Part shown: piece after piece, positions 10,730-38,303 of the stretch | Layout: every line of letters starts with the position of its first letter | How positions within the stretch are numbered: position 1 is the first letter of the stretch | IMG/VR virus record: IMGVR_UViG_3300037780_000085 | Coordinates: 1-42,427 of that record | Length of the DNA stretch: 42,427 nucleotides | DNA from: a virus | Lineage: Duplodnaviria; Caudoviricetes | Reading direction: 5' to 3' (one strand) | Position numbers and translations under genes: made by a program | Notes under the pieces: generated by a model | What the model was told of the DNA's origin: nothing | Seen by the model: the letters and a program-made list of their open reading frames with translations, nothing else | Database searches by the model: none

Positions 10730-10745
10730 GTTTATCTCCTTTTGT

Positions 10746-10833
10746 TGGCACCCCCTGAGGGAATTGAACCCATTGTCTTCCATCCTGCATGTTTAAGACG
10801 ACGGTTTAGAAGACCGTTGCAGGGTCAGGAGGT
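10746..10833 (-). tRNA. non-canonical tRNA-Arg(TCT), D-arm rewired
   Basis: Acceptor ACCTCCT(GA)/(TC)AGGGGGT-G-CCA; ACGGT-CTTCTAA-ACCGT; no D hairpin, long segment after the anticodon arm. Confidence 0.75.
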
Positions 10834-10836
10834 ATT

Positions 10837-10923
10837 TGGTGAGCCGCCTGGGAATCGAACCCAGAAAGCTTTTTACGACAGATTAAGAGTCTGTTGTAGG
10901 TGACCAGTGCCCACACGCGACTC
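10837..10923 (-). tRNA. tRNA-Lys(CTT), atypical D arm and 13-nt variable region
   Basis: GAGTCGC/GCGGCTC-ACCA; ACAGA-CTCTTAA-TCTGT. Confidence 0.8.
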
Positions 10924-10937
10924 ATAGTGTAAATCTG

Positions 10938-11342
10938 TTAGTCAGCACCTACAATTTCAATATCAACACTTTCCGAATAGTATCCATTACTGTATCCATA
11001 CCATCGAATATCAACCGAACCTTTGATGGTTCTAAAACGATAGTAGGTCCATGTATAAGATTCCTCCCAATCATCAATCGGTTCTGCGTCGTTGCTAACA
11101 GCTTCTTCTGCCAGTAAGATAGGAGTTCCGACTAGGTCATCTAGGTCTCCCACAATATCTTCAATTGATACTGATTCACAACAATCTTGTCTGTGGTACA
11201 TTCTTAGGTAGTGATTATCAGTCAAATGAAAATGCAGCTCATCTCGATCAATTTCTACTATTTTTGTTAGAATTCTACCTTTAAGGTCCTCTAGACAGTG
11301 AATAGGGTCTTGAAGCCCGTTATATGTTTCATATTTGTTCAT
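10938..11342 (-). CDS. conserved phage hypothetical protein
   Basis: YHRQDCCESV and WYGYSNGYYSE motifs, which I recognise from many phage ORFs. Confidence 0.75.
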   Translation of the reverse strand: MNKYETYNGLQDPIHCLEDLKGRILTKIVEIDRDELHFHLTDNHYLRMYHRQDCCESVSIEDIVGDLDDLVGTPILLAEEAVSNDAEPIDDWEESYTWTYYRFRTIKGSVDIRWYGYSNGYYSESVDIEIVGAD

Positions 11343-11362
11343 TTGTGTTTTCCTTGCTTTAT

Positions 11363-11740
11363 TTACGGCTCTCCTAGCAGCAAACCCATCACAAAACCAA
11401 ACGCAGCGACACCGCCTGTCAAAGTTGCCCAGGCTGCTAAAAATTCACCCGGGGCCATACCCGATCCGGATAACACCAACAAAAAACAAGGTGCTGTAAT
11501 TATACCCAGCGCCCCTGCTGTTTTGATTCCTACTACAAAATTAGAGTCTCTTTGAGATTCGTTGATTTTTTCATCTTTGGCGATTGTATTGGCTCCGGCG
11601 CATCCTGTAACACCTCGGCCATGTTCTGAGTAAGGAGACAAAGTCTTTGTATCCTTGAACTCTTCATAGCGATCTTTTAGGCTCATGCCGTCGCCCCGGT
11701 TCTTTACCGAGTAAGTTTTGTTTTCATTCTCAGTCATCAT
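11363..11740 (-). CDS. membrane protein, hypothetical
   Basis: Two C-terminal TM segments; GGAG SD. Confidence 0.55.
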   Translation of the reverse strand: MMTENENKTYSVKNRGDGMSLKDRYEEFKDTKTLSPYSEHGRGVTGCAGANTIAKDEKINESQRDSNFVVGIKTAGALGIITAPCFLLVLSGSGMAPGEFLAAWATLTGGVAAFGFVMGLLLGEP

Positions 11741-11997
11741 TTCTCTCCGCTTTCATCAATCGGATAATTTGATTGATTTTTTTCTGTTTTTTCCATGAGT
11801 GTGGCAGCATCCAAAAAGATATAACGGCCAAAATTCCACACAAGGTCCCGGCGCTCAATAGAAAAAAGTCAGTCATCGTTTGGCATCAAGTCAAGATAAA
11901 CAATTACAGCAAATATCATTGCTGTAAGAAGGTACATTTCTCGAAACAACAGAGCCGTCCAAACGATGCCAATTAGAAACCAGATAGTTCTAGTCAC

Positions 11998-12246
11998 TTA
12001 TTCCTCCATGGCTTTGCTGATCACTGCCCGAACGTTTTCGGGATGAGCGACGGGGTTATCTAGAACCCACTGAGCAGCCCGCTCAATACGCTCACGACGC
12101 TCGGTCTCAGCAATTAGCGCACGGGCCATGTCGGGGGCTAGGTCTTCTAGCGGCGTGGTTTCACCGCCCATCCATGTGCCTTGGCTATCCCAAAAGGATT
12201 CATGTTCTTCTAGCGCATCTTTCACTTTCGTCAGTAGGTCGGTCAT
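11998..12246 (-). CDS. hypothetical protein
   Basis: ORF track; GGAGG SD. Confidence 0.65.
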   Translation of the reverse strand: MTDLLTKVKDALEEHESFWDSQGTWMGGETTPLEDLAPDMARALIAETERRERIERAAQWVLDNPVAHPENVRAVISKAMEE

Positions 12247-12354
12247 GATCTAGTATCCTCCTGGTCGTGGGCCTGTTCGCCCTGTGGTTGGAATAGTTGG
12301 TTGAACCGGTGCTTTGATTTTCATCGCAGTTTCTCCTGTGCGTTGTGCCACTGA

Positions 12355-12876
12355 CTATCTTTCATGCCATTGGCCCATGATGCTTTGAGCATTGCGCATG
12401 TGCTTGTATAGCAGTCCGTTTTCCGGATCGGTTTGAACCAATCTACGCTTGCCCAATGCAGTTTCGAAATTGTAGGCATTGTCGTCAAACAAGATGAAAT
12501 CCCTAACATCTGTGGCATGTGTGTCCAGATATTCTCTCACTTCGTCGCCGCGATCAAAGCCTCGGCGATGTATCGATTGTTCATCTGGGTCGGTTTTCCA
12601 AGGTGTTGCAAACGCTCCCCGGAATCCTGAATTACCAAATGCTGCACGAACCCAGTGTTCGATTTGAGTGCTTTTGACATCAATGAACTTCTTCCAGGTG
12701 CTCATTATCACAAACTCAGCAGGATAACGATCATGAATCCGATTCATGAAGTCAACAGCAACAGGATCAAACCGGTGCCACATGCCGTAGGTTGCTGCAT
12801 GTGCATAGTGAACACGGCTTGAGGTGAAAACACCGTCAATGTCTAGAAACACCAGATACTTGCGCTCGTTTTTCAT
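12355..12876 (-). CDS. HAD domain protein, Swiss-Army-knife RNA-repair type (HAD_SAK_2-like)
   Basis: FLDIDGV, STW, RGDEV..YL, ILFDD, VQTD...GL motifs. Confidence 0.8.
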   Translation of the reverse strand: MKNERKYLVFLDIDGVFTSSRVHYAHAATYGMWHRFDPVAVDFMNRIHDRYPAEFVIMSTWKKFIDVKSTQIEHWVRAAFGNSGFRGAFATPWKTDPDEQSIHRRGFDRGDEVREYLDTHATDVRDFILFDDNAYNFETALGKRRLVQTDPENGLLYKHMRNAQSIMGQWHER

Positions 12877-12974
12877 CTCAAGTTTCCTTTCTATGTCTAC
12901 TGTATACTATCTTTGCATGCAAGTCAACAGTCTAGTATCGCATTATATTTCTCTTACTACAGGAGGATTTATTT

Positions 12975-13054
12975 TGGTGCGCCTGGTAGGAGTCGAACCT
13001 ACATGTGTCCAGTTAACCTTTCTACACGTTCGTAGCGTGAGGGTATACAGACGC
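12975..13054 (-). tRNA. non-canonical tRNA-Arg(ACG), D-arm rewired
   Basis: GCGTCTG/CAGGCGC-ACCA; CACG-CTACGAA-CGTG; perfect T arm; no D hairpin. Confidence 0.75.
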
Positions 13055-13060
13055 AGATTT

Positions 13061-13135
13061 TGGTACAGCCTAAAGGATTCGAACCTTTCGCCTTCACCGT
13101 GTCGAGGTGCTGCTCTACCACTGAGCTAAGGCTGT
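13061..13135 (-). tRNA. tRNA-Val(GAC)
   Basis: ACAGCCT/AGGCTGT-ACCA; CACC-TCGACAC-GGTG. Confidence 0.85.
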
Positions 13136-13142
13136 GTGATTT

Positions 13143-13234
13143 TGGTGACCCTTGTGGGAATCGAACCCACACCACCTCTGCACAGGCTGCTGAATATAGT
13201 GCAGTCATCAGCATTCAAGGCAACCATTAGGGCC
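13143..13234 (-). ncRNA. tRNA-like RNA without a canonical D or anticodon arm (pseudoknot candidate)
   Basis: Acceptor GGCCCT/AGGGTC-ACCA and T arm GTGGG-TTCGATT-CCCAC intact; interior CTGCAC/GTGCAG hairpin with a 15-nt loop. Confidence 0.65.
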
Positions 13235-13240
13235 ATAACT

Positions 13241-13349
13241 TGGTGGAAAGGGATAGAATCGAACTACCGACGCGACACCCCTGTGCCCGCTCTACCGCGA
13301 CAAACGTCACCCTGCAGTGGTTCATAGTAAGTCTCTGAGCTACCTTTCC
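13241..13349 (-). ncRNA. tRNA-like RNA with ~38-nt D-loop insertion and 4-nt 'anticodon' loop
   Basis: GGAAAGG/CCTTTCC-ACCA; GCTC..GAGC D stem; GGCAC-AGGG-GTGTC. Confidence 0.7.
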
Positions 13350-13355
13350 AGTATT

Positions 13356-13460
13356 TGGTGGAGAGGGTTGGATTCGAACCAACGACGCGAAGAATTACCA
13401 GTTCTTCCGCTCTACCCAGACCATCTACAAGATTGGTGATCTTGCTGAGCTACCTTCTCC
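13356..13460 (-). tRNA. tRNA-Thr(GGT)-like with ~28-nt D-loop insertion
   Basis: GAAGAA-CTGGTAA-TTCTTC; T arm GTTGG-TTCGAAT-CCAAC; acceptor with a bulged A; ACCA end. Confidence 0.7.
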
Positions 13461-13466
13461 ATGTTT

Positions 13467-13541
13467 TGGTGAACCGGGGGAATTTCGAAATCCCGACACG
13501 AAGGTTAAAAGCCTCCTGCTCTGCCTCTGAGCTACCGGTCC
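13467..13541 (-). tRNA. tRNA-Lys(TTT)
   Basis: GGACCGG/CCGGTTC-ACCA; GGAGG-CTTTTAA-CCTTC. Confidence 0.88.
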
Positions 13542-13696
13542 ATCTGTGTTTGTAGAGAAATCTTGGCAGATCTGCGTTCTGCCTTGCGAGTTTTACCGTG
13601 CGCACCGGAGCGTCGAGTAGCAAGATGTGCTACAAATGGATTACGCTCTTTGCGCACTTTGGGTTTTCGTTTCATCGTCTTTTCTTTCAAATTCAT
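13532..13696 (-). CDS. small basic protein (54 aa) whose stop codon lies inside tRNA-Lys
   Basis: MNLKEKTMKRKPKVRKERNPFVAHLATRRSGAHGKTRKAERRSAKISLQTQMDR*; below the ORF-track cutoff. Confidence 0.6.
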   Translation of the reverse strand: MNLKEKTMKRKPKVRKERNPFVAHLATRRSGAHGKTRKAERRSAKISLQTQMDR

Positions 13697-13702
13697 CTCG
13701 AG

Positions 13703-13924
13703 TCAACCTACTACTGTCCAACGATGTCCATGCTCATGAACTGCAAACATATTGCAGAAGCCGTCAGGGTCATCGCCGTCTACGAATGCAATCATATTCT
13801 CGATAACAGGATCCTGGCCAGGCTCGATTGCGAGATCGCAGGTTTTGGTTTGGACGGGCTCAAACTGATTTGCACGAAGCTGCTCAAATGCCGCTTGAGG
13901 AGTGATACTGGGTCGTTTAATCAT
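13703..13924 (-). CDS. hypothetical protein
   Basis: AAAGGA SD and a TTGACA/TATAGT promoter upstream. Confidence 0.55.
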   Translation of the reverse strand: MIKRPSITPQAAFEQLRANQFEPVQTKTCDLAIEPGQDPVIENMIAFVDGDDPDGFCNMFAVHEHGHRWTVVG

Positions 13925-13992
13925 CTTGTGCTTCCTTTCGTTGCTTGCAGTGTTACTATACAGCTACAAACAATGTTGTCAACTGTTTTGTT

Positions 13993-14068
13993 TGGTGGAA
14001 CCCCGGGGACTCGAACCCCAACCTCGAGTTTTTCAGACTCGTGTGCGCACCGCTTACACCAGAGTTCC
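13993..14068 (-). tRNA. tRNA-Phe(GAA)
   Basis: GGAACTC/GGGTTCC-ACCA; CGAGT-CTGAAAA-ACTCG. Confidence 0.88.
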
Positions 14069-14076
14069 ATGTGTTT

Positions 14077-14168
14077 TGGTGAGGAGTGGAGGATTCGAAC
14101 CACTCGAGAAACCGACCGATCTTGTTTATACTCAACGGTGTTACAGACCGCCGACCGGAACACTCCCC
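14077..14168 (-). tRNA. non-canonical tRNA-Tyr(GTA), D-arm rewired
   Basis: GGGGAGT(G)/(C)ACTCCTC-ACCA; GCGGT-CTGTAAC-ACCGT; no D hairpin. Confidence 0.75.
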
Positions 14169-14783
14169 TTATTTTACTTTATATCCTTTATACCAGCCTT
14201 CTGGTATTACAGACTCTTTTTTTATTTTTTTATTTTCTTGTCCGTTTGTTATCCACATAGTTCCATATTGCGAATTTTGTTTTCCGGTCCCAGTATTTTT
14301 CTTAGCAAGGCTTATTTTTTCTTTAGATTCTGGTGTATGGTTTTTACCAGTAAATGTATCATAACGAATTTTTCCCTGTTTGTGAGCATTAGAAACTGCT
14401 TCTCTATTTTTAGCACCGGGCATAATTTTTTTTCTTTTTGCAGTTTCTGATATTTTTTTGTTAATTTCTGCGTTATGAGGAACTAAGCCGTTTTCATTAA
14501 TATATCCAAAGCCTCCGTGTCCTCCTGGACATAAATTGTAGTTTGTGCTTTCTTTAACAAAATCTTTAGTAACTAAACTAGCTTCTTTGGCATTCATATC
14601 AGATTCGTTATCGAACACAAAAAGTATCTCTTTTTTAAAATTATCTATTCCATATTTTTCAATAGCTCTCTTGAGATGTTTACCGGAACCCATATAGCCG
14701 TCATCTAAATTTTTAGTTTGATGCTTACCTATATATACTTTTTTATTGATAATGTTTGTTACTTTATAAATTGTATAGAACAT
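14169..14783 (-). mobile_element. free-standing GIY-YIG homing endonuclease (Seg-like, NUMOD3-like C-terminus)
   Basis: TIYKVTN..NKKVYIGKH..YMGSG, YNL, GKNHTPESKEKIS, GTMWITNG; AT-rich; TATAAATA upstream. Confidence 0.9.
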
Positions 14784-14839
14784 AATCTGTATTCCTAGTT
14801 TTATTGGCATTACTATTTATACAGATTATGCTCTCTATG

Positions 14840-14913
14840 TAGCCCCAACGGGTGTCGATCCCGTTTCTCCACTTTGAAAGAGTGGTATCCTAGCCAGCGT
14901 AGACGATGGGGCC
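14840..14913 (-). tRNA. tRNA-Glu(TTC), CCA not encoded
   Basis: GGCCCCA/TGGGGCT-A-CAT; CCACT-CTTTCAA-AGTGG. Confidence 0.8.
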
Positions 14914-15061
14914 ATTTTTTGACGTCGATTCGGAATTTTACCGCCGCCAGTTCAAAGCAATCAATCAGCAAATTGACTACTACCTCTACCACACTCACAC
15001 ACGATGTGGGGCGCTTTTCTGCTACTTCGTTGTCATTGCTGTAACAACGTTTCGCATATAT

Positions 15062-15137
15062 TGGTGGTTAGGGCGATGCTCGAAATCGCACTTTCATCCT
15101 TATGAGGGATGCTCTCTTCCTCTTAAGATACCTAACC
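15062..15137 (-). tRNA. tRNA-Met(CAT) (elongator Met or Ile2)
   Basis: GGTTAGG/CCTAACC-ACCA; CATCC-CTCATAA-GGATG. Confidence 0.8.
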
Positions 15138-15143
15138 GTGTTT

Positions 15144-15217
15144 TGGTTGTCCTAGGAAGAATCGAACTTCCGTCTAACGATTATCAGTCGTTTGCTCTGC
15201 CATTGAGCTATAGGACA
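15144..15217 (-). tRNA. tRNA-Ile(GAT)
   Basis: TGTCCTA/TAGGACA-ACCA; AACGA-CTGATAA-TCGTT. Confidence 0.9.
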
Positions 15218-15221
15218 ATGT

Positions 15222-15308
15222 TGGTGAACGGGGTGGGAATCGAACCCACGATGTGCTTTCGCAGCCGGATTAAAAGTCCGGACCCTTCGCCTCTCGGGTC
15301 ACCCGTCC
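15222..15308 (-). tRNA. tRNA with Lys(TTT) anticodon and long variable arm
   Basis: CCGGA-CTTTTAA-TCCGG followed by CTGCGAAAGCACATC; ACCA end. Confidence 0.8.
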
Positions 15309-15315
15309 ATATTTT

Positions 15316-15399
15316 TGGAGGTCGGTGCGTGAATCGAACACGCTACTTTACAGTGCTTCAGATTTGCAATCTGCCCCCTTACCATCCGGGCCACCGACC
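15316..15399 (-). tRNA. tRNA-Cys(GCA) with extended variable region
   Basis: GGTCGGT/ACCGACC-T-CCA (U73); CAGA-TTGCAAA-TCTG. Confidence 0.85.
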
Positions 15400-15615: not shown

Positions 15616-15648
15616 AAAAAAACCCTCCTAAGCGTTTTGCTTGGAGGG
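15616..15648 (-). terminator. intrinsic terminator of attenuator 1
   Basis: CCCTCCAAGC-AAAAC-GCTTAGGAGGG-T7. Confidence 0.85.
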
Positions 15649-15678: not shown

Positions 15679-15771
15679 TCATCCGCCGCCAAACCCCTCC
15701 GAGCAGCAATAGCCACGCTCGCAGCATTTTCTAATGCTAGTAATAAACATATGTGCAATAGTTGCGTGCAT
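15679..15771 (-). CDS. putative attenuator leader peptide 1 (30 aa)
   Basis: MHATIAHMFITSIRKCCERGYCCSEGFGGG*; AAAGGA SD; 3' part complementary to the terminator 5' arm. Confidence 0.7.
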   Translation of the reverse strand: MHATIAHMFITSIRKCCERGYCCSEGFGGG

Positions 15772-15828: not shown

Positions 15829-15906
15829 CAACTTTTTGTTGCGTCTACCGTTTTATTTATCTGTTGTCTGCAGTTATACAGTCTTTTTGGTGCTGTCAAC
15901 TGTTTT

Positions 15907-18121: not shown

Positions 18122-18198
18122 TGGTAGGCCCCCTCGGACTCGAACCGAGATATCCAATCTTATGAGGATTGCTCATTAACCAATTATGATAAAGGCCT
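18122..18198 (-). tRNA. tRNA-Ile2(CAT)-like (lysidine substrate) or Met
   Basis: AGGCCTT/GGGGCCT-ACCA; CAATC-CTCATAA-GATTG; TilS encoded in the window. Confidence 0.8.
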
Positions 18199-18204
18199 AA
18201 ATAT

Positions 18205-18277
18205 TGGTTGCAGAGACAAGAATCGAACTTGCGTAGTCTAGGTTATGAGCCTAGATGGGATACCAATCCGCTCTGCG
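18205..18277 (-). tRNA. initiator-like tRNA-fMet(CAT)
   Basis: C1:A72 mismatch (CGCAGAG/CTCTGCA); CTAGG-CTCATAA-CCTAG; short D arm. Confidence 0.75.
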
Positions 18278-18287
18278 ATAAACATTG

Positions 18288-18384
18288 TTTAAAAGATACA
18301 CTATGCCGGATTCGCACCGGCTCCCCTTTCATTCCGCAGAAACCGCCTACTGACGCTTGGGTGCCTACTAGTGTATCATTTAAA
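18288..18384 (-). ncRNA. long-stem RNA with T-arm (unassigned)
   Basis: GATACACTA/TAGTGTATC closing stem; GCCGG-TGCGAAT-CCGGC next to the 3' strand. Confidence 0.55.
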
Positions 18385-18390
18385 CTATGA

Positions 18391-18468
18391 GTTTAGTGTA
18401 ACAGTCTCGGAAATGGAGTAGTCGCCTACTTCCAAATGGGTCGGAACACGAAAACTGTTACACAAAAC
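18391..18468 (-). ncRNA. stem-closed structured element (unassigned)
   Basis: GTGTAACAGT/ACTGTTACAC 10-bp stem enclosing smaller hairpins. Confidence 0.4.
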
Positions 18469-18522
18469 ACATTGTGGAACGGCGTCTAGCCTGTCCCTGA
18501 TCAATGCGTCGAAACTCGTTCA

Positions 18523-18616
18523 GTAGATACACTATGCGGAAGCCTCCGATCTCACTGCTGTGCAGTATAACACATGGCCTCAGTGCCCCGATGTGTCCAG
18601 GATATAGTGTATCTAC
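18523..18616 (-). ncRNA. stem-closed structured element (unassigned)
   Basis: GTAGATACACTAT/ATAGTGTATCTAC 13-bp stem, same core as the element at 18288. Confidence 0.45.
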
Positions 18617-18627
18617 AAAAATAGTCT

Positions 18628-19673
18628 TTTGCCTAGCCTGAGATTACAGCGTAGGACGGAGTCCTTTGATAGCCGTACCCGAACCCTTGCGAGGTTGGTT
18701 AGCCCATATCCACTAAAGTCCTTGCGGATCATTTAGTATACTCCAATGGTGCCTTTTTTGGAGAGTGGCGTTTCTCTCGTCATGTGCTGCTACTCGTCCC
18801 TTGGTCTTACGTCTGCCTTGCGAGCAGTTCAACCGCGCTAACGGTTTACGTCTTCTCTCCGAACAACCACATCCGCCTTGCGAGCTTCCGTGGGCCATAT
18901 TCTGCGAACAGTATGGCATTAACCATCTTTCGCAACACACCGGGGCAGGCTTTCGCTTTTTTATGGTGCGTGGAGTAGGACTTGAACCTACAATCCTCTG
19001 TGCCTAAAACAGATGCCTTTACCAGTTTGGCCATCTACGCGAACCCACTAAGAAGTGCTGCCCCAGTTGCTCCGTATCTTGTTAGATACAGAATACAACA
19101 CTCCTCCTGTCTTTCGTCTTGCGGACTACTCAACGTCACTTCAAGTATCCGGCTCCTACACCTTCAACTCTTGTGATACTACATTGCCTTTGCTTGCAGG
19201 CTTAGACTCTGTAGTTACTGGTTGGTATTCAGTACTCGTTAGTTTGGCTGAACAGTGTTTGGGCGCCAACCCTCTTAGCACTCACCGAGTGGCTCTGTGC
19301 CTATCCTTTCGGACACTATTCCTAACTTAATACCTACCGCCTTTCTACGGACGGGATTTGCTTTCGCATACAGGCGTCGCCGTGTAGCGAGTCAAATCTA
19401 ACCCCAGCTTGTTTAGATGGACCATTGCTGGCGCCGGTTTATGGGAAACCCGGCTTTGGGACAGTTACCTGCCTTACCCTTATATGGACGCTAAACCGCC
19501 CATCTTACTGTGTTTACAACGACATACTGTTACCCTATCGTTGGACTGGTAGACATAGTGGTCAACATTGCCATCCCAGCCTATTGTCGGAAGCGTTTGG
19601 CACTGCTGTTTCACTAGGAACCACCCTAGTTACTTGGCAGTGCTACTACCCAATATGCCTGTGTAAACACAGT
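18628..19673 (-). ncRNA. GOLLD-like giant structured RNA with nested tRNA
   Basis: ~1 kb with no credible ORF, many GCAA/GAAA-capped hairpins, own promoter and boxA; 3' part GAGTAG..AAACGCCACTCTCCAAAAAAGGCAC..GTAATCTCAGGCT resembles the GOLLD 3' domain as I recall it. Confidence 0.7.
18964..19040 (-). tRNA. tRNA-Leu(TAG), short variable loop, nested in the GOLLD-like RNA
   Basis: GCGTAGA/TCCACGC-ACCA; TCTGT-TTTAGGC-ACAGA. Confidence 0.8.
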
Positions 19674-19704
19674 TTTTGCTCATCATCGACTTGCGTCTAA
19701 AGCT

Positions 19705-19728
19705 GTGTCTAAATTATCAAAGAGCGTG
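19705..19728 (-). promoter_or_regulatory. boxA-like antitermination site
   Basis: CACGCTCTTTGATAATTTAGACAC; near-identical copy at 24560-24583. Confidence 0.7.
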
Positions 19729-19757
19729 TTAACAACAACGTTGCTAACTATGTAACT

Positions 19758-19785
19758 AATATAGCATCGCAAACGCTGTTGTCAA
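19758..19785 (-). promoter_or_regulatory. sigma70-type promoter of the GOLLD-like operon
   Basis: TTGACA-N16-TATATT. Confidence 0.7.
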
Positions 19786-19814
19786 CTGCTTTTTTGCTTC
19801 TCAGCAAACTTTTT

Positions 19815-19891
19815 TGGTAGGGGAAGTGGGACTCGAACCCACAAAACCAACTTTTTGAGAGTTGTATGTATACCTATTCCATCATTCCCCC
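19815..19891 (-). tRNA. tRNA-Leu(CAA), short variable loop
   Basis: GGGGGAA/TTCCCCT-ACCA; CAACT-CTCAAAA-AGTTG. Confidence 0.82.
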
Positions 19892-19893
19892 AT

Positions 19894-19969
19894 TGGTGCT
19901 GCCACGAGGATTCGAACCCCGGACATCGACATTACTAGTGTCGCGCTCTACCAACTGAGCTATAGCAGC
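19894..19969 (-). tRNA. tRNA-Thr(AGT)
   Basis: GCTGCTA/TGGCAGC-ACCA; CGACA-CTAGTAA-TGTCG. Confidence 0.9.
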
Positions 19970-19970
19970 A

Positions 19971-20525
19971 TCAAACATATACTACACACCATTTTAGTTT
20001 TTTACTAGATTTTACAGTAGAAGAATTCTTGAAATCAACAATTTCACAGTTGGTGCTGGTTCTGTAAACCCAACGCAGAAAAGGATTATCTGAGTTTCTA
20101 TACTCGTCTCTGCTCCAACGCCATCCATGACTCACATGAGTTAGATCCGTCCAATCTGCTAAATCCATTGCTTGTCGAATAGCAGCCCATTGCTGTTTGC
20201 GCTTGCCCCATAGGTTGCCCGCGCGGTCAATGCCCTGCGGTAACAATTTGGGATCGCTTTCCAAGACAATGATGTGGTTGGGCGGCGCTGCACGCTCCAA
20301 GCAGTAAAACTTTCGTTCTATGCGATCAAATCTGCCCGCCTTCAAGAACTCTAAAGCAATTTCATGTGCTCGGATCTCCTCGGGCACACGCCAATGTGCT
20401 TGACTCTGCAGGCTGCTCATTTCCAACAAGCCTTTGGTACCCAGCAGTGCTACACCATACATGGTGTCGAATCTGCTCTGCACTCTGCGCAATTCACGCT
20501 TTCTCTGATTTTGTTCGTCTCTCAA
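19971..20525 (-). CDS. hypothetical protein
   Basis: TTG start after GAGG SD; 184 aa. Confidence 0.55.
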   Translation of the reverse strand: MRDEQNQRKRELRRVQSRFDTMYGVALLGTKGLLEMSSLQSQAHWRVPEEIRAHEIALEFLKAGRFDRIERKFYCLERAAPPNHIIVLESDPKLLPQGIDRAGNLWGKRKQQWAAIRQAMDLADWTDLTHVSHGWRWSRDEYRNSDNPFLRWVYRTSTNCEIVDFKNSSTVKSSKKLKWCVVYV

Positions 20526-20700
20526 TTCCTCTAATCTGGTGTGTATATCGTAGATCTATGACATTTTATTTCTCCTTTTGTATGTTGTAAATTAGGCCGA
20601 GCACTCACAACCTCCAAGTTGGTGATCAATCCAACGCTGTTGTGTATTAGCCGGGTCGCCGCTAGCAACTCCCCTTACATCCATGATGCAGGCCTAAACT

Positions 20701-20775
20701 TGGTGCCTCTGACAGGAATTGAACCTGCTTGATCCGGGTTTAGAAGCCGTTGCACTACCATAGTGCTACAGAGGC
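20701..20775 (-). tRNA. tRNA with ambiguous anticodon (CTA amber or TCT Arg)
   Basis: Perfect acceptor, D and T arms; anticodon arm CGG-CTTCTAAAC-CCG. Confidence 0.7.
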
Positions 20776-20776
20776 G

Positions 20777-21013
20777 TTATCTCTTTGTGTAAGCACCTTC
20801 CGTGCTAGATATTGCTGCTATCAGTTCTTCCCACATCTGTGGGCCTACAGCAATGGTTTTGAATTTTTCTGTTTCATCGTCCCACTGTCTAATATACACT
20901 ATGTCGTCGAAGGCGTCAATTTTCAAATCCTCGTGAAACCCGCCGTCATCTACAACGGTGATTTCAATGTTGTCGTGATCAAATTCTACAGTGAACAATA
21001 TCTGTCCTTTCAA
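20777..21013 (-). CDS. hypothetical protein
   Basis: ORF track; FTVEFDHD..ITV.D type small phage protein. Confidence 0.6.
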   Translation of the reverse strand: MKGQILFTVEFDHDNIEITVVDDGGFHEDLKIDAFDDIVYIRQWDDETEKFKTIAVGPQMWEELIAAISSTEGAYTKR

Positions 21014-21245
21014 AAAGACCCGGGTGTATTGCAGTTAACTTACTACAACAGGGACGCCGGATCATATTGGCGATCCGTTAGCCTACACACGGTGGAAGGT
21101 GTGCGTTTGACCCCTATGCGTTTGAAAGCAGTCAGCAAGACAGTTTTTCAATTTCTGCTCGGTGCAATCGGTTTAGCATAAGACTTAGTGGTTCTATGTG
21201 GAAGACCGCCACGGATCAACGGCGGCACTCTTCCACAATTAAAAA

Positions 21246-22097
21246 TTATTTGGTTTCGAACATTTGCAGGTCGCGCTCTTTGGGTACAAAGAATCTTTCC
21301 ATTTTTCTTTTAACCCAAAACCATTTGCCCTGTACATTTGTCCCGTCGCTGAGATAAACTTCATAGTCTCTCGACGTAAACCAATCAAGAATTTCTTGAC
21401 ATGAATAACCGAATCTTTCGGGCTGACCATCAACCATTTCGAGTTGCACAACAGGGCGCTCTCTCATGATAGTATTTTCGGCACCTAAAATTACCGGGAA
21501 TTCATATCCTTCAGTGTCGACTTTGATAATATCAATTTCTGACAAAGGTTGATCATCCAGTCTCTCAACAACTACCAATTGTTTTTCAGGTTCGATTTTT
21601 CTCACTCTTTGTCTTCCAGATTTAAGAGGAATATTGATATTATCAATGTGATTATGACCAGCATTGTCCTTTTTAATTAGGATTTCAAAAGAACCGGCTG
21701 TGTCTCCTAGACCTATGTTGTGAGTAACAATGTTACCGTTAACAGTCATGTTTGCTCCGGCATCCTGCTTTTCAAACCAATTTTTAGTAGCGGCCATGCC
21801 TTTGTTCAAAGCAATATTCTTTTCTGCCATTTGAAATGTTTGGGGAGTAGGTTCAAAACCATGAACAGTGTCAGCAAAAGTAGCATACTCGATGGAATTC
21901 ATTCCAATATTCATACCCACGTCTAAAATAGTTCTTGCTTTTGGCACTAACTTTCTTAGAGCAATTAGGTTTTGTTTTTGATAAGGACCGGCATTGGCTA
22001 CTCTTTGTTGATAAAAACTATCGTTTTTATAAATCCAATACTGACGTCCATAGGTATTGGTTACCAACTGTTCTTCATATAGGTGTGAACCTGTCAT
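21246..22097 (-). CDS. FkbM-family SAM-dependent methyltransferase
   Basis: ILDVGMNIG, FEP, IKVDTEGYE..VILGA motifs. Confidence 0.88.
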   Translation of the reverse strand: MTGSHLYEEQLVTNTYGRQYWIYKNDSFYQQRVANAGPYQKQNLIALRKLVPKARTILDVGMNIGMNSIEYATFADTVHGFEPTPQTFQMAEKNIALNKGMAATKNWFEKQDAGANMTVNGNIVTHNIGLGDTAGSFEILIKKDNAGHNHIDNINIPLKSGRQRVRKIEPEKQLVVVERLDDQPLSEIDIIKVDTEGYEFPVILGAENTIMRERPVVQLEMVDGQPERFGYSCQEILDWFTSRDYEVYLSDGTNVQGKWFWVKRKMERFFVPKERDLQMFETK

Positions 22098-22157
22098 TTA
22101 AATCTCCTAGGTTTTTTATATAATAACAAAACAATTTTTTTTGTCAAGAGAAATGTT

Positions 22158-22232
22158 TGGAGCGGACAGGGGGTAACGCTCCCCCTTCTACTGATTGGCA
22201 ACCAGTCGTAATAACTTGTATACTATGCCCGC
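22158..22232 (-). tRNA. tRNA-Gly(GCC), atypical D and T loops
   Basis: GCGGGCA/TGTCCGC-TCCA; ACTGG-TTGCCAA-TCAGT; T loop AGCGTTA. Confidence 0.8.
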
Positions 22233-22484
22233 ACTAATGTGAGAAACTCAATGCTATCATACCTAAAAAACCTAGGAACATAAAAGCCGTGAGTGTGCTT
22301 AGAACGTTGATGTTTTTGTAAAAACTCACCATCAACAGCACCGGAAATATTGCGATACCCGATATTTTTATAATTAGAATAATCACTTCTGTCATACTGT
22401 ATTTATGAGGTAGATCCTGTTCTGCACAGACGTCTTGCTATGCTAAATCAGCGCACCCCATAGTGAAACTTTACAGCAGTGTAA

Positions 22485-22559
22485 TGGTGGAGGCCCAGGG
22501 AATCGAACCCTCGTAGACATCTTCCGTGCAAGGGAAAACCGTAGCCCACTACTGCCCCC
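22485..22559 (-). tRNA. tRNA-Ala(TGC), short D arm
   Basis: G3:U70 pair; TTCC-CTTGCAC-GGAA; ACCA end. Confidence 0.75.
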
Positions 22560-22685
22560 AACTCTCTCAACACACAGCCCCCACCGTCTCGCCTGTGTTG
22601 TGTTCCTGCTCTGCATCTTACGGCACAGATAGCCTAGGCACAGGAACTTACCTTATTGGTCTGTCTAGAGAGACAAACCCGAATG

Positions 22686-22758
22686 TCAGGGAGAGAGGAC
22701 TCGAACCTCCGGTCTTTGGTACCCAAAACCAACGCTTTACCACCTAAGCTACACCCTG
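22686..22758 (-). tRNA. tRNA-Pro(TGG), CCA not encoded
   Basis: CAGGGTG/CTCCCTG-A; TTGGT-TTTGGGT-ACCAA. Confidence 0.82.
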
Positions 22759-22828
22759 TACTCATTTGCCGATATATTCATCAACTATCGGCTGAACTTC
22801 TTCTTTATATCTACACAGATAAAAATTT

Positions 22829-22904
22829 TGGCTGGTCCTCCAGGGTTCGAACCCGGCCTCTTCTGAACCAAAATCAGATGTGTTACCAACTACACCAAGG
22901 ACCA
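22829..22904 (-). tRNA. tRNA-Gln(TTG)
   Basis: TGGTCCT/AGGACCA-GCCA; TCTGA-TTTTGGT-TCAGA. Confidence 0.88.
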
Positions 22905-22921
22905 ACGGATTGTATTGTATA

Positions 22922-22999
22922 TGGTACCCGGGGAGGGATTCGAACCCACACTGTACAGAACCTAAATCTGGCGCCTCCTACCTATTGGGCTACCCGGGC
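22922..22999 (-). tRNA. tRNA-Leu(TAG), short variable loop
   Basis: GCCCGGG/CCCGGGT-ACCA; CAGA-TTTAGGT-TCTG. Confidence 0.82.
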
Positions 23000-23008
23000 A
23001 TTGTTGAT

Positions 23009-23083
23009 TGGTGCTCCTGGAGAGATTCGAACTCCCGGCCAATGGTTTCGAAGACCACCGCTCTTCCACTGAGCTACAGAAGC
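23009..23083 (-). tRNA. tRNA-Arg(TCG)
   Basis: GTGGT-CTTCGAA-ACCAT; A20; ACCA end. Confidence 0.88.
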
Positions 23084-23088
23084 AGTTT

Positions 23089-23162
23089 TGGTGCCGGATG
23101 AGGGAATCGAACCCCCGTCTACTGCTTACAAGGCAGTTGCTAATCCCCTCAGCTAATCCGGC
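23089..23162 (-). tRNA. tRNA-Thr(TGT)
   Basis: ACTGC-CTTGTAA-GCAGT; GCCGGAT/ATCCGGC. Confidence 0.88.
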
Positions 23163-23212
23163 TGATCATTGATAGCGTTGCTCTACTAAATGAGCTACAC
23201 TTGAGACAGTAA

Positions 23213-23287
23213 TGGCGACCCTACGGGGACTCTAACCCCGTTCTCCCGGTAGACAGCCGAGCGTGATAAACCATATACTATAGGGCC
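23213..23287 (-). tRNA. tRNA-Asp(GTC)
   Basis: CTCGG-CTGTCTA-CCGGG; G73-CCA. Confidence 0.83.
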
Positions 23288-23292
23288 GTGTT

Positions 23293-23368
23293 TGGAGCGG
23301 GTAGCCGGTAACGCTCCGGTCTACTCTTGGGTGGAAGCCAAGTATGTATCTGTAAACACCTTACCCGC
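23293..23368 (-). tRNA. tRNA-Gly(TCC), atypical D and T loops
   Basis: CTTGG-CTTCCAC-CCAAG; T loop AGCGTTA; U73. Confidence 0.8.
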
Positions 23369-23374
23369 ATTTTC

Positions 23375-23464
23375 TGGCAGAGAGACAGGGATTCGAACCC
23401 TGGGAACCCGTAAAGGTTCTTCAGTTTTCAAGACTGACGCCTTCGACCGCTCGGCCACCTCTCC
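23375..23464 (-). tRNA. tRNA-Ser(TGA)
   Basis: TCAGT-CTTGAAA-ACTGA; long V arm; G73. Confidence 0.9.
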
Positions 23465-23470
23465 GTGTTT

Positions 23471-23545
23471 TGGTGCAGGATGAGAGATTCGAACTCCCGA
23501 CCCACGGTGTGTAAAACCGTTGCGCTACCACTGCGCCAATCCTGC
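23471..23545 (-). tRNA. tRNA-Val(TAC)
   Basis: ACGGT-TTTACAC-ACCGT. Confidence 0.9.
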
Positions 23546-23556
23546 GTTGTTCTTTT

Positions 23557-23644
23557 TGGCGGAGCGACTGGGAGTCGAACCCAGTGTACCCTTTCAGGTA
23601 CTACGGATTAGCAATCCGCTGCATTACCATCCTGCCCCCGCTCC
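23557..23644 (-). tRNA. tRNA-Ser(GCT)
   Basis: GCGGA-TTGCTAA-TCCGT; long V arm. Confidence 0.9.
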
Positions 23645-23663
23645 ACAAAGGTAAGATTTGTTT

Positions 23664-23739
23664 TGGCACCGGTGGTAGGATTCGAACCCACGCTGACGCG
23701 GTTTTGGAGACCACCGTTCTACCCCTGAGCTACACCGAT
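23664..23739 (-). tRNA. tRNA-Trp(CCA)
   Basis: GTGGT-CTCCAAA-ACCGC; G73-CCA. Confidence 0.88.
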
Positions 23740-23803
23740 ATAATTGAAAACGAGCGGCACCGTTACCACGCAATGGGTCTGCCGTGTTATTCCGCTCGTC
23801 AAT

Positions 23804-24200
23804 GGCTCTACCCATGGGGTCCTCTGCTATGGGCGATTTAACTGAACTTCACCGCGTTCAGTACCGTAATTTAGACCCAGCCCTGCGCGACCGGGTTTTT
23901 CACTGTTCTCAAAGTCGCAGTTAGAACAGCTACATTCTGTTTGGCAACACTGTGCCAGTTGTGTGGTTGGCTCTTACTCACGACGTTGAGCGACTTAGCT
24001 GAAGCGGGCGTGTGATATCTTCAGTACCGTGATTGGCTTTCCAGCTACCTTGGGAGAGGGACTTTCTCCTTTAGCTTTACACTAGGACAGCTTTGAACTG
24101 AGAGATCCTAGCAACCAAGACTGGAAATGTGTTAGGCTCTACCCAAGGAGACGAAAGCTTTAGGCGATTCACCAGTGCCGTTAACCCCCAGCACTGTACC
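23804..24200 (-). ncRNA. three copies of an unassigned two-hairpin RNA motif
   Basis: Consensus GGTA-C[stem]G-NTRARTCG-C[stem]G-TA(A)GAGCC at 23804-23865, 23969-24028 and 24135-24200; stems differ in sequence but keep pairing. Confidence 0.65.
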
Positions 24201-24208
24201 ATGTATTT

Positions 24209-24285
24209 TGGCTCCCTACCTTGGATTCGAACCAAGCGCAAACGGATTAACAGTCCGCCGCCCCCGCCGAGAGGGCCCGCAGGGA
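24209..24285 (-). tRNA. tRNA-Asn(GTT)
   Basis: TCCCTGC/GTAGGGA-GCCA; GCGGA-CTGTTAA-TCCGT. Confidence 0.85.
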
Positions 24286-24289
24286 ATAA

Positions 24290-24453
24290 ACTCTACTTAC
24301 AACTGCTAACGTGTAGGATTTGCACCTACAAGCGGACCGTCGTCCTATTTGCTACCCACGTAGTTAAGCTGACTCGAACAGCACACCGCATCCCAACAGG
24401 CCACGGACTCGAACCGTGTTTACTTCTATTACGTTAGCATGTGTAAGTAGAGT
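24290..24453 (-). ncRNA. long-stem RNA carrying three T-arms (unassigned)
   Basis: ACTCTACTTAC/GTAAGTAGAGT plus TGCTAACGT/ACGTTAGCA stems; CACGG-TTCGAGT-CCGTG, GCTG-TTCGAGT-CAGC, GTAGG-TGCAAAT-CCTAC. Confidence 0.65.
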
Positions 24454-24559
24454 ACTATGAATACATGTTGGTGCATGTATTCCTCTACTTACTCCCACTA
24501 TCATCGACTTCAGTCTAAGCAGGTGTTGTTTGAAGCTACAGTTTTGTAGCAAAACAACC

Positions 24560-24583
24560 GTGTCTAAATTGTCAAAGAGCGTG
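24560..24583 (-). promoter_or_regulatory. boxA-like antitermination site
   Basis: CACGCTCTTTGACAATTTAGACAC. Confidence 0.7.
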
Positions 24584-24611: not shown

Positions 24612-24723
24612 AATATAGCACCTTGTGTTGCTATGTCAACTGTTTTTTTGCATTGCTTGGAAATCTACATGTGCGTTCCTTGCTTTGCCCTACTGTTATA
24701 CTGTGTTGTGTGTGCCTTGTCAA
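24612..24723 (-). promoter_or_regulatory. tandem sigma70-type promoters of tRNA array 2
   Basis: TTGACA-N17-TATAAC (24695-24723) and TTGACA-N16-TATATT (24612-24639). Confidence 0.7.
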
Positions 24724-24745: not shown

Positions 24746-24776
24746 AAAAAACCCTCCTAAGCTTGTGCTTGGAGGG
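24746..24776 (-). terminator. intrinsic terminator of attenuator 2
   Basis: CCCTCCAAGC-ACAA-GCTTAGGAGGG-T6; stem identical to the one at 15616-15648. Confidence 0.85.
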
Positions 24777-24803: not shown

Positions 24804-24893
24804 CTAACCGCCGTATCCCTCCAAAAATAGATCCGCACCGGGATTACTCTGTCCTGATGTCCATATTACGGATAAAGCGAGTGAATTTCTCAT
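24804..24893 (-). CDS. putative attenuator leader peptide 2 (29 aa)
   Basis: MRNSLALSVIWTSGQSNPGADLFLEGYGG*; AAAGGA SD; TAAATA motif upstream; TTGGAGGG complementary to the terminator arm. Confidence 0.7.
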   Translation of the reverse strand: MRNSLALSVIWTSGQSNPGADLFLEGYGG

Positions 24894-24973
24894 TGAATTC
24901 GTTTCCTTTTTAAAATTACAAAGTTATTTATCATCTCAACAAAAAAACTGCTAAATATATGAAAGGATTGAAC

Positions 24974-25573
24974 ATGAAAATCAACGAATTAACTGGATTT
25001 AAATCTCACCCTATATATCGATTAGCACAGCAGTCTTTCAGTTTATTTGATCTAGAGAAAAAATTAGAAAAGACTGAATATGAAAAACTAAAGTTGGGCT
25101 CTGGACTGTATGCTGTGGTGTATGCCAAACCTGGTTCAGATGTAGTATATAAATTTTTTGACAAAAACGATGAAGGTTACTTGAGATATTTTAATTACGT
25201 AAAACAAAATCAAAACAATCCACATGTTCCTAAAATAATAGGAAGATTAATACGCTTAGATTTTTCTAAAAGACAAAGCACTTCCGGAAACGAATCTGTA
25301 AATGCATATATGTTAAAGTTAGAAAAACTTGAACCATTAAATTTAGATAATCCCAAGCATCTAAAAACCTATCAAAATATTGTTGCATTGTTTAATACGA
25401 TTAGAATTAATTCTTCAGATTCAACTCGTTTTGTACAAAAAATGGAAAAATCCTCCCCTCAATTGGTTGAATTGGTTTCTGATATCGATCACATGACCAG
25501 TGGATATGTAGATATTCACCCCGGTAATGTTATGGTTAGAAAAAATGGAACACCGGTGATCACTGACGTATAA
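24974..25573 (+). CDS. protein-kinase-like fold protein, paralog of 5741..6322
   Basis: MKINEL start, LGSGLYAVV, VYK, NPHVPK, LEKL, DIHPGN, TDV. Confidence 0.7.
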   Translation: MKINELTGFKSHPIYRLAQQSFSLFDLEKKLEKTEYEKLKLGSGLYAVVYAKPGSDVVYKFFDKNDEGYLRYFNYVKQNQNNPHVPKIIGRLIRLDFSKRQSTSGNESVNAYMLKLEKLEPLNLDNPKHLKTYQNIVALFNTIRINSSDSTRFVQKMEKSSPQLVELVSDIDHMTSGYVDIHPGNVMVRKNGTPVITDV

Positions 25574-29272: not shown

Positions 29273-29878
29273 TTAGAACTCAGCATCATCATCTTTTACT
29301 TTCTTTGCAATAGTCTTGTGAATACCAGGATTTACTTTCAGTACGTGAGGCATCATCTCATGTCTAATGTAGTTACGAGTATAGTGTATATCTTCGTTGC
29401 TGTCATCCTCTATCCACGGTACGTTATGCAAACGACACCACATTTCCAAATCTCTCTTACGGGTGAGGCGAAACGGACGAATCACATGATTGCGACGATA
29501 GGGAATCCATTTGCCTGTGCCGTGCAAACTGCTCCATACCCAAGTTTCTACACAATCATCCAAGTGATGACAGGTAACAACCGGCGCACCAAGAAATCTG
29601 TCTAAAAATTCATAACGCTGCTCACGCCACCATTCTTCTCTGCTAGGTCCTGGCGGAATAGTACCATGCGTTTCACCGACGGTAAGCGGAATCTGGTTCT
29701 CAGTGCAGTAGCGTTCCATAAATGCTCGGGCCTGCTCGCCGTGGGCTGTTCCGTGATCAAAATGCAATACATGTACTTGGTGGTTACGACGGAGAAAATC
29801 CAATGCTGCCATAGAATCTACCCCGCCCGAACAAGCAAGCCAAATCTTTCTAGGAAGTTTACCTTGCAGCTTGATCAA
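29273..29878 (-). CDS. tilS: tRNA(Ile)-lysidine synthase, N-terminal catalytic domain only
   Basis: SGGVDSM PP-loop, R..RY, HHLDDCVET, IRP, EDDSN, RNYIRH. Confidence 0.88.
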   Translation of the reverse strand: MIKLQGKLPRKIWLACSGGVDSMAALDFLRRNHQVHVLHFDHGTAHGEQARAFMERYCTENQIPLTVGETHGTIPPGPSREEWWREQRYEFLDRFLGAPVVTCHHLDDCVETWVWSSLHGTGKWIPYRRNHVIRPFRLTRKRDLEMWCRLHNVPWIEDDSNEDIHYTRNYIRHEMMPHVLKVNPGIHKTIAKKVKDDDAEF

Positions 29879-37259: not shown

Positions 37260-38303
37260 TCAGTTGCCTCCCTTCAAGAGAAACTTGTTAGAGATAGTTT
37301 TGAAACTGAAGCCGGGATCTTCGTTACACTTCCAAACAAGGCCTTCACGGATCTTGTGGTTGATACTCGGACCTTCTGCAAGAGCAAGCCCGGCATCAAC
37401 CGACTCAGGTGCCCGGCCCGCATTATCGAAAACAGAAACATGGTCAAGGCCACGATGTTTGCATTCCAATTGACGAGCATGGGGGCGCAGGTAAGCGTGT
37501 TCTTGAATGTCGAAGATGTCAAACACGAAGAACTTGTGCTCAGTGAATCCTTCGCGATTTCCTTGAATGCCTGGCCCCATCAATTCTCCCTGAAAGGCAA
37601 AACCATTGGGAATCCGGTCCGCAATCTTTAGAGCCATAGCAACAAGAGTGTTGTCTTTGTTCTCTTCATTGACTTTGAGTTCAAGGTTACGGCTGCAAAC
37701 ACGAAGTTCATCTTCCCAACGGAAGATAGTGCAGCTGGTGCCATCCAGTTTGAGAGTCACTTCATAAGTGACATCGCCCTTGGCAACGATTTCTTCGAAG
37801 CAGTTCTGAATACGCTCTTGATCGGTTTTAGGAATGAGGCTAGTTGGAAACACACCACGCACCTGTCCAGCAAGTTGTGGAGCAATAGGCGGTTCCCACT
37901 TCTGTACATTGAGAAGATCAGTAACATCCTCGCCTAAGTTGACTACTTTGTGACGAATGCGACCATCTTCGAGAAAAGAAACAGCATTACTGATTGCCTT
38001 CTCTGGTACAGTTTCCAGTTTTAGCAGCAATCCCTGGCTAACTTGCCCGCGCAATTTCACAGTGCGCAGACGCTCGCCTTTCACTCCATTGTATTCGCGA
38101 GGCTCAGAACCTTTGCTCAAGAAAGGAGCAAGTTCATGCGGAACCCAGCTGTCAATCTCAAGATAGACGGCAAGTTCACCTACAGCAAATTCACCTTTTT
38201 TGATTACTATTTTCCAACCATCAACGGTTGCTACCTCGATAGCGTCTGCACCTTCAATAGGCTGAATGTCAGCAATACGACGGATAGTGGCGAGTTTTCT
38301 CAT
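37260..38303 (-). CDS. RNA ligase, DRB0094 family
   Basis: N-terminal RKLATIRRI..I.PIEGADAIE OB-like domain, PKTDQERIQN, KLDGTS, CSRN, QGELMG, FDIFD, EGLVWK, SFKTISNKFLLK. Confidence 0.92.
   Translation of the reverse strand: MRKLATIRRIADIQPIEGADAIEVATVDGWKIVIKKGEFAVGELAVYLEIDSWVPHELAPFLSKGSEPREYNGVKGERLRTVKLRGQVSQGLLLKLETVPEKAISNAVSFLEDGRIRHKVVNLGEDVTDLLNVQKWEPPIAPQLAGQVRGVFPTSLIPKTDQERIQNCFEEIVAKGDVTYEVTLKLDGTSCTIFRWEDELRVCSRNLELKVNEENKDNTLVAMALKIADRIPNGFAFQGELMGPGIQGNREGFTEHKFFVFDIFDIQEHAYLRPHARQLECKHRGLDHVSVFDNAGRAPESVDAGLALAEGPSINHKIREGLVWKCNEDPGFSFKTISNKFLLKGGN

Follow-up and report, generated by a model that had tools for sequence, protein, structure and literature searches.

A putative ribosome-coupled attenuator at the head of a phage tRNA block encodes the amino acids of the tRNAs behind it

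In T-box riboswitches tRNA status selects between terminator and antiterminator, one tRNA binding the RNA directly and no leader being translated, and in arrest peptides of the TnaC/SecM type a peptide-dependent stall occurs at a fixed codon. Attenuation of amino-acid operons by the ribosome is described for trp, his, leu, thr, ilvGMEDA, ilvBN as well as pheA (accessible text of PMC1183508). General-stall upstream ORFs include P. aeruginosa PA5471.1/armZ (PMC12057347, in part) and E. coli toiL and the whiB7 uORF (PMC12121999, in part); these leaders are non-repetitive, stalls at various positions relieve termination, the targets are proteins, and the accessible portions of both papers describe no match between leader and product. 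A long tRNA array induced by translational stress, of the inducible L-array kind, is known from the trn operon of Anabaena (PMC8421152, in part), with the repressor TrcR in control (PMC10272220, in part); the terms “leader”, “terminat” and “uORF” are absent from the accessible text of PMC8421152. Why phages carry tRNAs has been an open question for more than 50 years, with codon compensation set against the countering of host tRNA depletion (PMC10264068, accessible part).

The locus considered here lies in a viral sequence of 42,427 nucleotides (IMGVR_UViG_3300037780_000085), the whole of which is referred to as the window. Leader 2, a minus-strand ORF at 24893-24804 encoding MRNSLALSVIWTSGQSNPGADLFLEGYGG and a stop codon, resembles the trp-type attenuators in being a short leader ORF written in codons for what its operon provides, and in having a mutually exclusive antiterminator and terminator, slow decoding being predicted to give read-through. 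Unlike them, it is found in a phage and before tRNA genes rather than biosynthetic enzymes, polls some 11-12 amino acids once to a few times instead of using runs of one to three, and has its antiterminator inside the last codons, while two leaders split the code. An untranslated leader 2 is predicted by an equilibrium model to be read through, whereas the trp leader terminates (super-attenuation; PMC1183508, in part). Leader 2 would thus work like the classical amino-acid attenuators without being one of them. With PA5471.1/armZ, toiL and the whiB7 uORF it shares the non-repetitive leader, and it differs from toiL, which acts via translation initiation and Rho (accessible part of PMC12121999). 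The long tRNA array is a feature in common with the Anabaena trn operon. As in a T-box, tRNA status would decide the switch, but through a translated leader; a T-box had no match in Rfam at the gathering score or at E<=5, no Rfam family falls on leader 1 or leader 2, and the leader 2 peptide is without a Pfam match. Judged by its anatomy, leader 2 appears to be a real, conserved leader-peptide attenuator, with a match to its block that is strong and limited by position. It is likely, in our assessment, that it acts as a ribosome-coupled transcription attenuator, raising tRNA transcription when the codons of its block are decoded slowly. The features involved, all on the minus strand, are as follows.

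24925-24932, minus strand: promoter motif GATAAATA, upstream of leader 2
24904-24908, minus strand: Shine-Dalgarno-like AAGGA
24804-24893, minus strand: leader 2 ORF, 29 codons, of which codons 2-21 are the predicted stall window
24826-24865, minus strand: conserved stem inside the leader 2 ORF, 24860-24865 with 24826-24831 (RNAalifold consensus)
24852-24857 with 24839-24843, minus strand: inner hairpin of this stem
24817-24824, minus strand: antiterminator segment TTGGAGGG (Leu-Glu-Gly codons), complementary to the terminator 5' arm
24746-24776, minus strand: intrinsic terminator, CCCTCCAAGC, loop, GCTTAGGAGGG and T6, -15.0 kcal/mol
24695-24723, minus strand: sigma70-like promoter TTGACA-17-TATAAC, directly 3' of the leader 2 terminator
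24612-24639, minus strand: second sigma70-like promoter, 11/12 matches with TG
24569-24579, minus strand: boxA-like motif
22158-24285, minus strand: tRNA block 2a (ARAGORN): Asn, Trp, Ser(GCT), Val, Ser(TGA), Gly(TCC), Asp, then Thr, Arg(TCG), Leu(TAG), Gln, Pro, Ala, Gly(GCC)
18122-20775, minus strand: tRNA block 2b: CTA-anticodon tRNA, Thr(AGT), Leu(CAA), Leu(TAG) in a GOLLD RNA, two CAT tRNAs
15679-15771, minus strand: leader 1 ORF, 30 codons, with its own GATAAATA at 15854-15861, AAGGA, and antiterminator at 15695-15702
15617-15648, minus strand: leader 1 terminator, near-identical to that of leader 2
10457-15399, minus strand: tRNA block 1: Cys, Lys, Ile(GAT), Met, Glu, Phe, Lys, Val(GAC), Lys, His
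29273-29878, minus strand: TilS-type PP-loop gene (PF01171, E 1.8e-25), upstream of leader 2 and not behind it

The conservation of this anatomy was followed in related loci. A pattern for the scaffold alone retrieved 59 viral loci, 49 of them (duplicates included) with same-strand tRNA genes within 3 kb downstream, and peptide-only patterns gave 32 matches (8 viral, 24 from metagenomes), every one a leader 2 orthologue; a scan of loci L010-L024 returned no leader. The peptide matches, one ORF from a genome scan and the window itself make up a set of 21 distinct orthologous ORFs of 29-31 codons. All 21 have an open frame, a Shine-Dalgarno sequence (AAGGA) with a conserved TTC(A/T) immediately 5' of the ATG, and TAAATA within 60 nt upstream of the ORF. 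The divergent 5' part lay outside the search patterns; it contains in-frame stops in 0/21 orthologues, stops in one shifted frame in 14/21 and none in the other. The invariance of the antiterminator/terminator core is partly owing to the search pattern. The terminator is seen in 20 of the 21, the remaining contig ending there, and 95% of its cells are paired. A TAAATA motif upstream had already been reported by the sequence-only reading, a model's inspection of the letters without database searches, and it is present in GATAAATA; it may be a promoter of the T4 late type. The motif has three copies in the window, a number not in itself above chance, two of which precede the two leaders, and a 19-nt exact match to the window's promoter stretch precedes the leader of phage Atu_ph07. 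In one contig of a close relative (run X1, probably DNA), Pro replaces Ser4 at position 24884, an exchange for another amino acid of block 2, and the tail differs at 24810 by a synonymous substitution. Another orthologue, accompanied by tRNAs, comes from a bacterial MAG (L138:1998-2194); its 2.8-kb contig is probably phage DNA binned into that MAG.

Folding of the orthologues gives the switch its predicted form. The helices of the stem inside the ORF have 97% and 93% of cells paired (RNAalifold, 20 sequences), one pair showing two-sided changes in 6/20 sequences, and the stem is predicted to leave the antiterminator free. The antiterminator itself has 94% of cells paired in 20 orthologues, with a single two-sided change, and an alternative hairpin able to sequester it 89%; covariation in these two is negligible. 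The duplex of TTGGAGGG with the terminator arm is calculated at -15.4 kcal/mol against -15.0 for the terminator. In a folding model with an assumed ribosome footprint, the antiterminator forms for stalls up to Asp21 in 19-20/20 orthologues per position and is lost from the codon after Asp21 onward (0/20 above 0.5); at equilibrium without a ribosome it forms in 19/20.

We infer that RNA polymerase starts at the TAAATA promoter and that a ribosome trails it on leader 2. With the ribosome at the last eight codons or the stop, TTGGAGGG would be covered, the terminator would form and the transcript would end at about 24746, whereas a stall at codons 2-21 would allow the antiterminator to form and transcription to enter the tRNA block that encodes those very tRNAs. 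The expected triggers are uncharged, scarce or cut tRNAs for Ser, Thr, Leu, Gly, Asn, Ala, Pro, Val, Gln, Trp, Asp or Ile(ATA), and leader 1 would be the equivalent for Cys, Met, Glu, Tyr, Phe, Lys, Ile(ATY), His and Arg. Leader 2 combines an ORF led by a ribosome-binding site and open in relatives, an intrinsic terminator before the genes to be controlled, an exclusive antiterminator predicted to be exposed or covered by ribosome position, and codons cognate to the downstream tRNAs.

The last of these, the correspondence between leader and block, was quantified across regions of 36 viral records in which leaders and tRNAs were mapped. The match window was taken from the second codon to three before the antiterminator core, and a block as all tRNAs before another leader or a gap >2.5 kb is reached; window end and family labels were set after the data had been seen, and moving the end by three codons either way gives fits of 0.78-0.82 vs 0.59-0.60. 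The test comprised 34 leaders, with L149, L152 and L178 (repeats of the same leader), a second L180 candidate (no tRNA behind it) and loci with fewer than three tRNAs left out; the start of L170 was shortened by hand, and the structure-based candidate L202 was not carried into the test. The tRNA region headed by leader 2 contains 28-32 genes depending on the ARAGORN score cut-off, Gly-TCC and Ala-TGC of block 2a being called at the relaxed score only. Within its match window 19/20 codons of leader 2 fit its own block (0.69 expected from the window proteome, p=0.005), and 2/20 fit block 1. Five other phages with two leaders behave alike, with 20/20, 20/21, 17/20, 19/20 and 24/25 codons fitting the own block and 3, 2, 1, 6 and 1 the other, and leaders 1 and 2 jointly cover all 20 amino acids in five of the six phages and 19 in the sixth. 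Pooled over the 34 leaders, 633/777 codons fit their own block vs 463 expected, and permuting blocks among families yields p=5e-6 (11 families) or 6/5040 (7 merged groups).

The match also follows tRNA gains and losses, and it stops at a defined place. In the leader-1 family (18/5040 permutations), two leaders with blocks devoid of tRNA-Cys have no Cys, and blocks with Gln, Asn and Thr tRNAs go with leaders containing those residues; no such tracking within families was detected in the leader-2 family (180/720) or four others. The excess over expectation amounts to +0.09 to +0.43 at each codon before the window end and drops to around zero or below at seven of the eight that follow, leader tails fitting in 142/268 codons vs 152 expected; the point at which the modelled ribosome would block the antiterminator coincides with the end of the match in 20/20 orthologues. 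The window's own leader 1 matches weakly (11/20, p=0.08; 9/20 fit the other block), the leader of G011 does not match (10/32, 0.34 expected), several truncated or whole-array leaders give no significant match, and whole-array leaders are uninformative for this test, their expected fit being 0.94-1.0. At L180 (G029) the leader is made almost only of Ser, Tyr, Gly, Glu and Cys (22/26, p=1e-10), and the 20 tRNA calls that follow it, one of them unassigned, are restricted to these same five amino acids.

What had drawn attention to leader 2 was its variety of codons, and a re-count gives the same figures: 25 distinct among 29 sense codons and 17 amino acids, with Leu as CTC, TTA, CTA and TTG, Ser as TCA twice, TCC and AGT, AGA, ATA and GGA (twice) also present, and each codon used at most two times. 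Of the three codons called typically rare, ATA is rare in the phage's own genes (RSCU 0.44) but AGA (1.20) and GGA (1.04) are not. Compared with random windows, the diversity lies above the mean, but modestly: 5,910 overlapping 29-codon windows from 48 ORFs of the window average 21.0 distinct codons (sd 2.1; P(>=25)=0.037). Other nulls give P=0.074 (independent draws from phage codon usage), 0.23 (uniform codons), 0.22 (shuffled leader nucleotides) and 0.38 (synonymous redraw of the leader 2 peptide), and 17 amino acids have P=0.094. The orthologues range from 20 to 28 distinct codons, so diversity is not fixed, and leader 1 has 18/30. In view of these values, codon diversity was rejected as the signature of leader 2, for which it is weak evidence; what marks the leader is instead that its residues are those carried by the tRNAs of the block downstream.

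The original proposal went further, in that leader 2 would poll many isoacceptors once each, every codon being chosen for one tRNA species and selection keeping both diversity and synonymous sites. The tRNAs it invoked are all present, namely tRNA-Leu(CAA) at 19815, tRNA(CAT) at 18122 and two Leu(TAG). Inside block 2b or ahead of it are internal promoters (22147 and 19785) and a terminator (near 21016), and promoters and a terminator intervene between leader 2 and the Leu-CAA and CAT tRNAs. Of its three codon links, that of ATA holds: Ile is ATA in 15/15 cases in the leader 2 orthologues (13/21 sequences, four positions; 5/15 at sites whose third base pairs in the stem), against a background of 0.16 and 0/18 in the leader-1 family, whose blocks usually hold Ile-GAT. 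The tRNA at 18122-18198 has a CAT anticodon and readable C4-G69 and C5-G68 pairs, which we take to be tRNA-Ile2 determinants; the anticodon may be modified by TilS, and a TilS-type gene is in the window. TTG lies in the antiterminator beyond the predicted stall window and is kept in only 11/21 orthologues. CTA is kept in 20/21, but because the A of this codon is base-paired to the U of the Trp codon, pairing and codon sensing are confounded as causes.

The same ambiguity affects the rest of the core. The synonymous sites ACA, GGA, AAT, GAT and CTA are kept in 20-21/21 orthologues, and Pro and Val third positions vary freely. In GGA, AAT, GAT and CTA the conserved third base is in each case part of a stem pair, whereas in ACA it is unpaired; most synonymous conservation in the core therefore cannot count as codon sensing, and invariant synonymous sites were rejected as proof of it. 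The base 5' of the leader 2 Trp codon is invariably a purine, though the amino acid there varies among seven. More favorable to isoacceptor polling is the unpaired 5' part, with Thr as ACA in 18/28 (0.25 in the background), fitting Thr-TGT, and Ser as TCA/TCG in 28/35 (0.26), fitting Ser-TGA, as well as an overall count of 157/240 cognate codons vs 132.7 expected, obtained from related and hence non-independent sequences. Against it, leader 2 of the window itself has cognate isoacceptor codons at 5/11 informative places (6.0 expected), which is no excess, CTC is used 14 times yet block 2 is without Leu-GAG, and the diversity varies as given above. Polling of every isoacceptor is thus possible but doubtful as the principle of the leader: sensing by amino acid is well supported, and sensing by isoacceptor only partly.

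The amino-acid content might instead be incidental, any stall opening the switch, as in general translation-stress sensors of the PA5471.1, toiL and whiB7 uORF kind. Such a sensor agrees with the antiterminator being predicted at all stall positions up to Asp21 and without a ribosome, and with the GGAGGG/CCCTCC scaffold and a non-repetitive leader preceding RtcB in Hyphomonadaceae, but leaves unexplained the block match, the tracking of tRNA moves and the loss of the match at the antiterminator; we regard it as unlikely to be the whole account. General stalls probably open the leader 2 switch as well, which would add to the attenuator reading and not replace it. Nor does the peptide itself seem decisive. 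The motif W-T-x-G-x-x-N-P-G-x-D-L-C is near-invariant, including in leaders retrieved by the terminator pattern alone, as would befit an arrest peptide or a trans-acting product that sets the switch independently of decoding; however, the codons of the motif make up the paired stem, other families have unrelated peptides on the same scaffold, and Pfam offers no match, and to this reading we give the least credence.

A different role for the terminator, to halt late transcription while sigma70-like promoters run the tRNA block and read-through stays minor, draws on the sequence behind it. TTGAC occurs within 200 nt behind the leader 2 terminator in 19/20 orthologues, which probably allows transcription of block 2 independently of the switch, and the window has up to three TTGAC motifs there together with a boxA-like motif. 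The latter, which may resemble the boxA of rRNA operons, is found as GCTCTTTRAYAA in 27/200 loci, in several immediately 3' of leader terminators. A mere stop nevertheless gives the match no purpose and does not require the promoter motif, Shine-Dalgarno sequence, open frame and antiterminator that are kept in 20-21/21 orthologues, and a stricter sigma70-like pattern is present past the terminator in 5/6 leader 2 units vs 0/7 of the leader-1 family; such a stop is very improbable as the main function of the terminator. Under the attenuator reading, the promoters behind terminator 2 would probably secure basal or early tRNA supply, and leader 2 would probably set a late, demand-driven top-up rather than being the sole gate of block 2. 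The earlier suggestion that it may govern late tRNA supply fits this promoter layout.

The design is not confined to one search pattern. Leaders with terminators outside the pattern also match their blocks (10/15, 9/13 and 7/13; p 8e-5 to 0.007). In G008 each of three blocks has its own leader (12/15, 10/15 and 9/13, the first being the earlier pattern match), the leader of G033 fits in 7/13 (p=0.004) and that of L183 in 7/9 (p=0.47, not significant). Among cultured phages, the Atu_ph07 leader, recognized by eye, fits in 23/28 codons (p=0.09), with 11/13 block amino acids occurring within the leader window, and in Sinorhizobium phage Phosso, whose candidates came from a structure-based look, Cys is the sole amino acid absent from both leader and block. 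Both leaders are annotated as hypothetical proteins (AUZ95228.1 in Atu_ph07, XYS97753.1 in Phosso), and their presence in cultured phages makes the design open to experiment. The pattern and the structure-based look revealed no leader in Paride and XacN1, the GGAGG pattern matched 0/4 cultured jumbo phages, and blastn and tblastn of leader 2 against cultured phages gave chance-level matches only, except for the 19-nt promoter match to Atu_ph07. ClpP of the window is ~60% identical to that of Pseudomonas PA5oct-like phages and 52-54% to those of Atu_ph07 and Phosso.

Bacterial genomes have this scaffold ahead of a class II synthetase, inferred to be ThrRS, with Thr-run leaders (11 cyanobacterial loci of 31 matches), of a DAHP synthase with a Tyr-run leader, and of RtcB with a leader free of repeats, which supports the scaffold being an attenuator. 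The cyanobacterial Thr-run loci are L117, L118, L120, L122, L123, L126, L128, L130, L131, L135 and L142, mostly ahead of the class II synthetase, and one such leader resides on the Acaryochloris plasmid pREB2. The non-repetitive leader and terminator before RtcB belong to Hyphomonadaceae-like genomes (L139, L141). Similar leader-terminator units occur in Amesbacteria, Gracilibacteria and Roizmanbacteria (L124, L132, L140, L144).

As far as searched, the leader 2 attenuator is unpublished: among the title and abstract matches listed, no account of such phage tRNA control was found, and “attenuat” and “leader” are absent from the accessible text of the Atu_ph07 paper (PMC6102473) and of PMC11242549, PMC7824862 and PMC11555353. 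It is tempting, if still tentative, to hypothesize that large phages take stock of everything the infected cell is able to decode, each tRNA block being gated by a translated listing of what it contains, partly down to single isoacceptors (ATA vs ATT/ATC), so that when a tRNA is lost to a host anticodon nuclease or to starvation just the block that replaces it is transcribed. If leader 2 is a switch that reads decoding speed at the codons its block serves, phage tRNAs would be an inducible replacement set, which favors the depletion view of their purpose, read-through at each leader would report which tRNAs fail in infection, and attenuation would extend from amino-acid supply to tRNA supply.

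Several further elements of the window deserve mention. A set of RNA repair genes on the minus strand (1706-2848, 9292-9741, 12355-12876 and 37260-38303) comprises two RNA ligases, a PNKP phosphatase and a HAD_SAK_2 protein, in keeping with a defense against tRNA cleavage. Back to back with leader 2 lies a divergent kinase-like gene (24959-25573, plus strand; PHROG 15752, E 1e-13) with its own plus-strand TAAATA motif just upstream; the gene was not seen at this position in the orthologue flanks that were read. The minus-strand stretches 23745-24200, 24290-24560 and 19110-19700 have no evident coding gene and no Rfam family, and some of them have T-arm-like hairpins; they are possible undescribed structured RNAs, the non-tRNA stretches of 19050-24300 giving nothing in Rfam but the end of the GOLLD RNA. 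The latter (18635-19106, minus strand; 187.8 bits) contains tRNA-Leu(TAG); upstream of it are a boxA-like motif (19714-19724) and the 19785 promoter. Two Lys-called tRNAs have long 87-base bodies (15222-15308 and 10837-10923, minus strand), and a CTA-anticodon, amber-suppressor-like tRNA (20701-20775, minus strand) and a Thr tRNA with A34 (19894-19969, minus strand) both recur in relatives.
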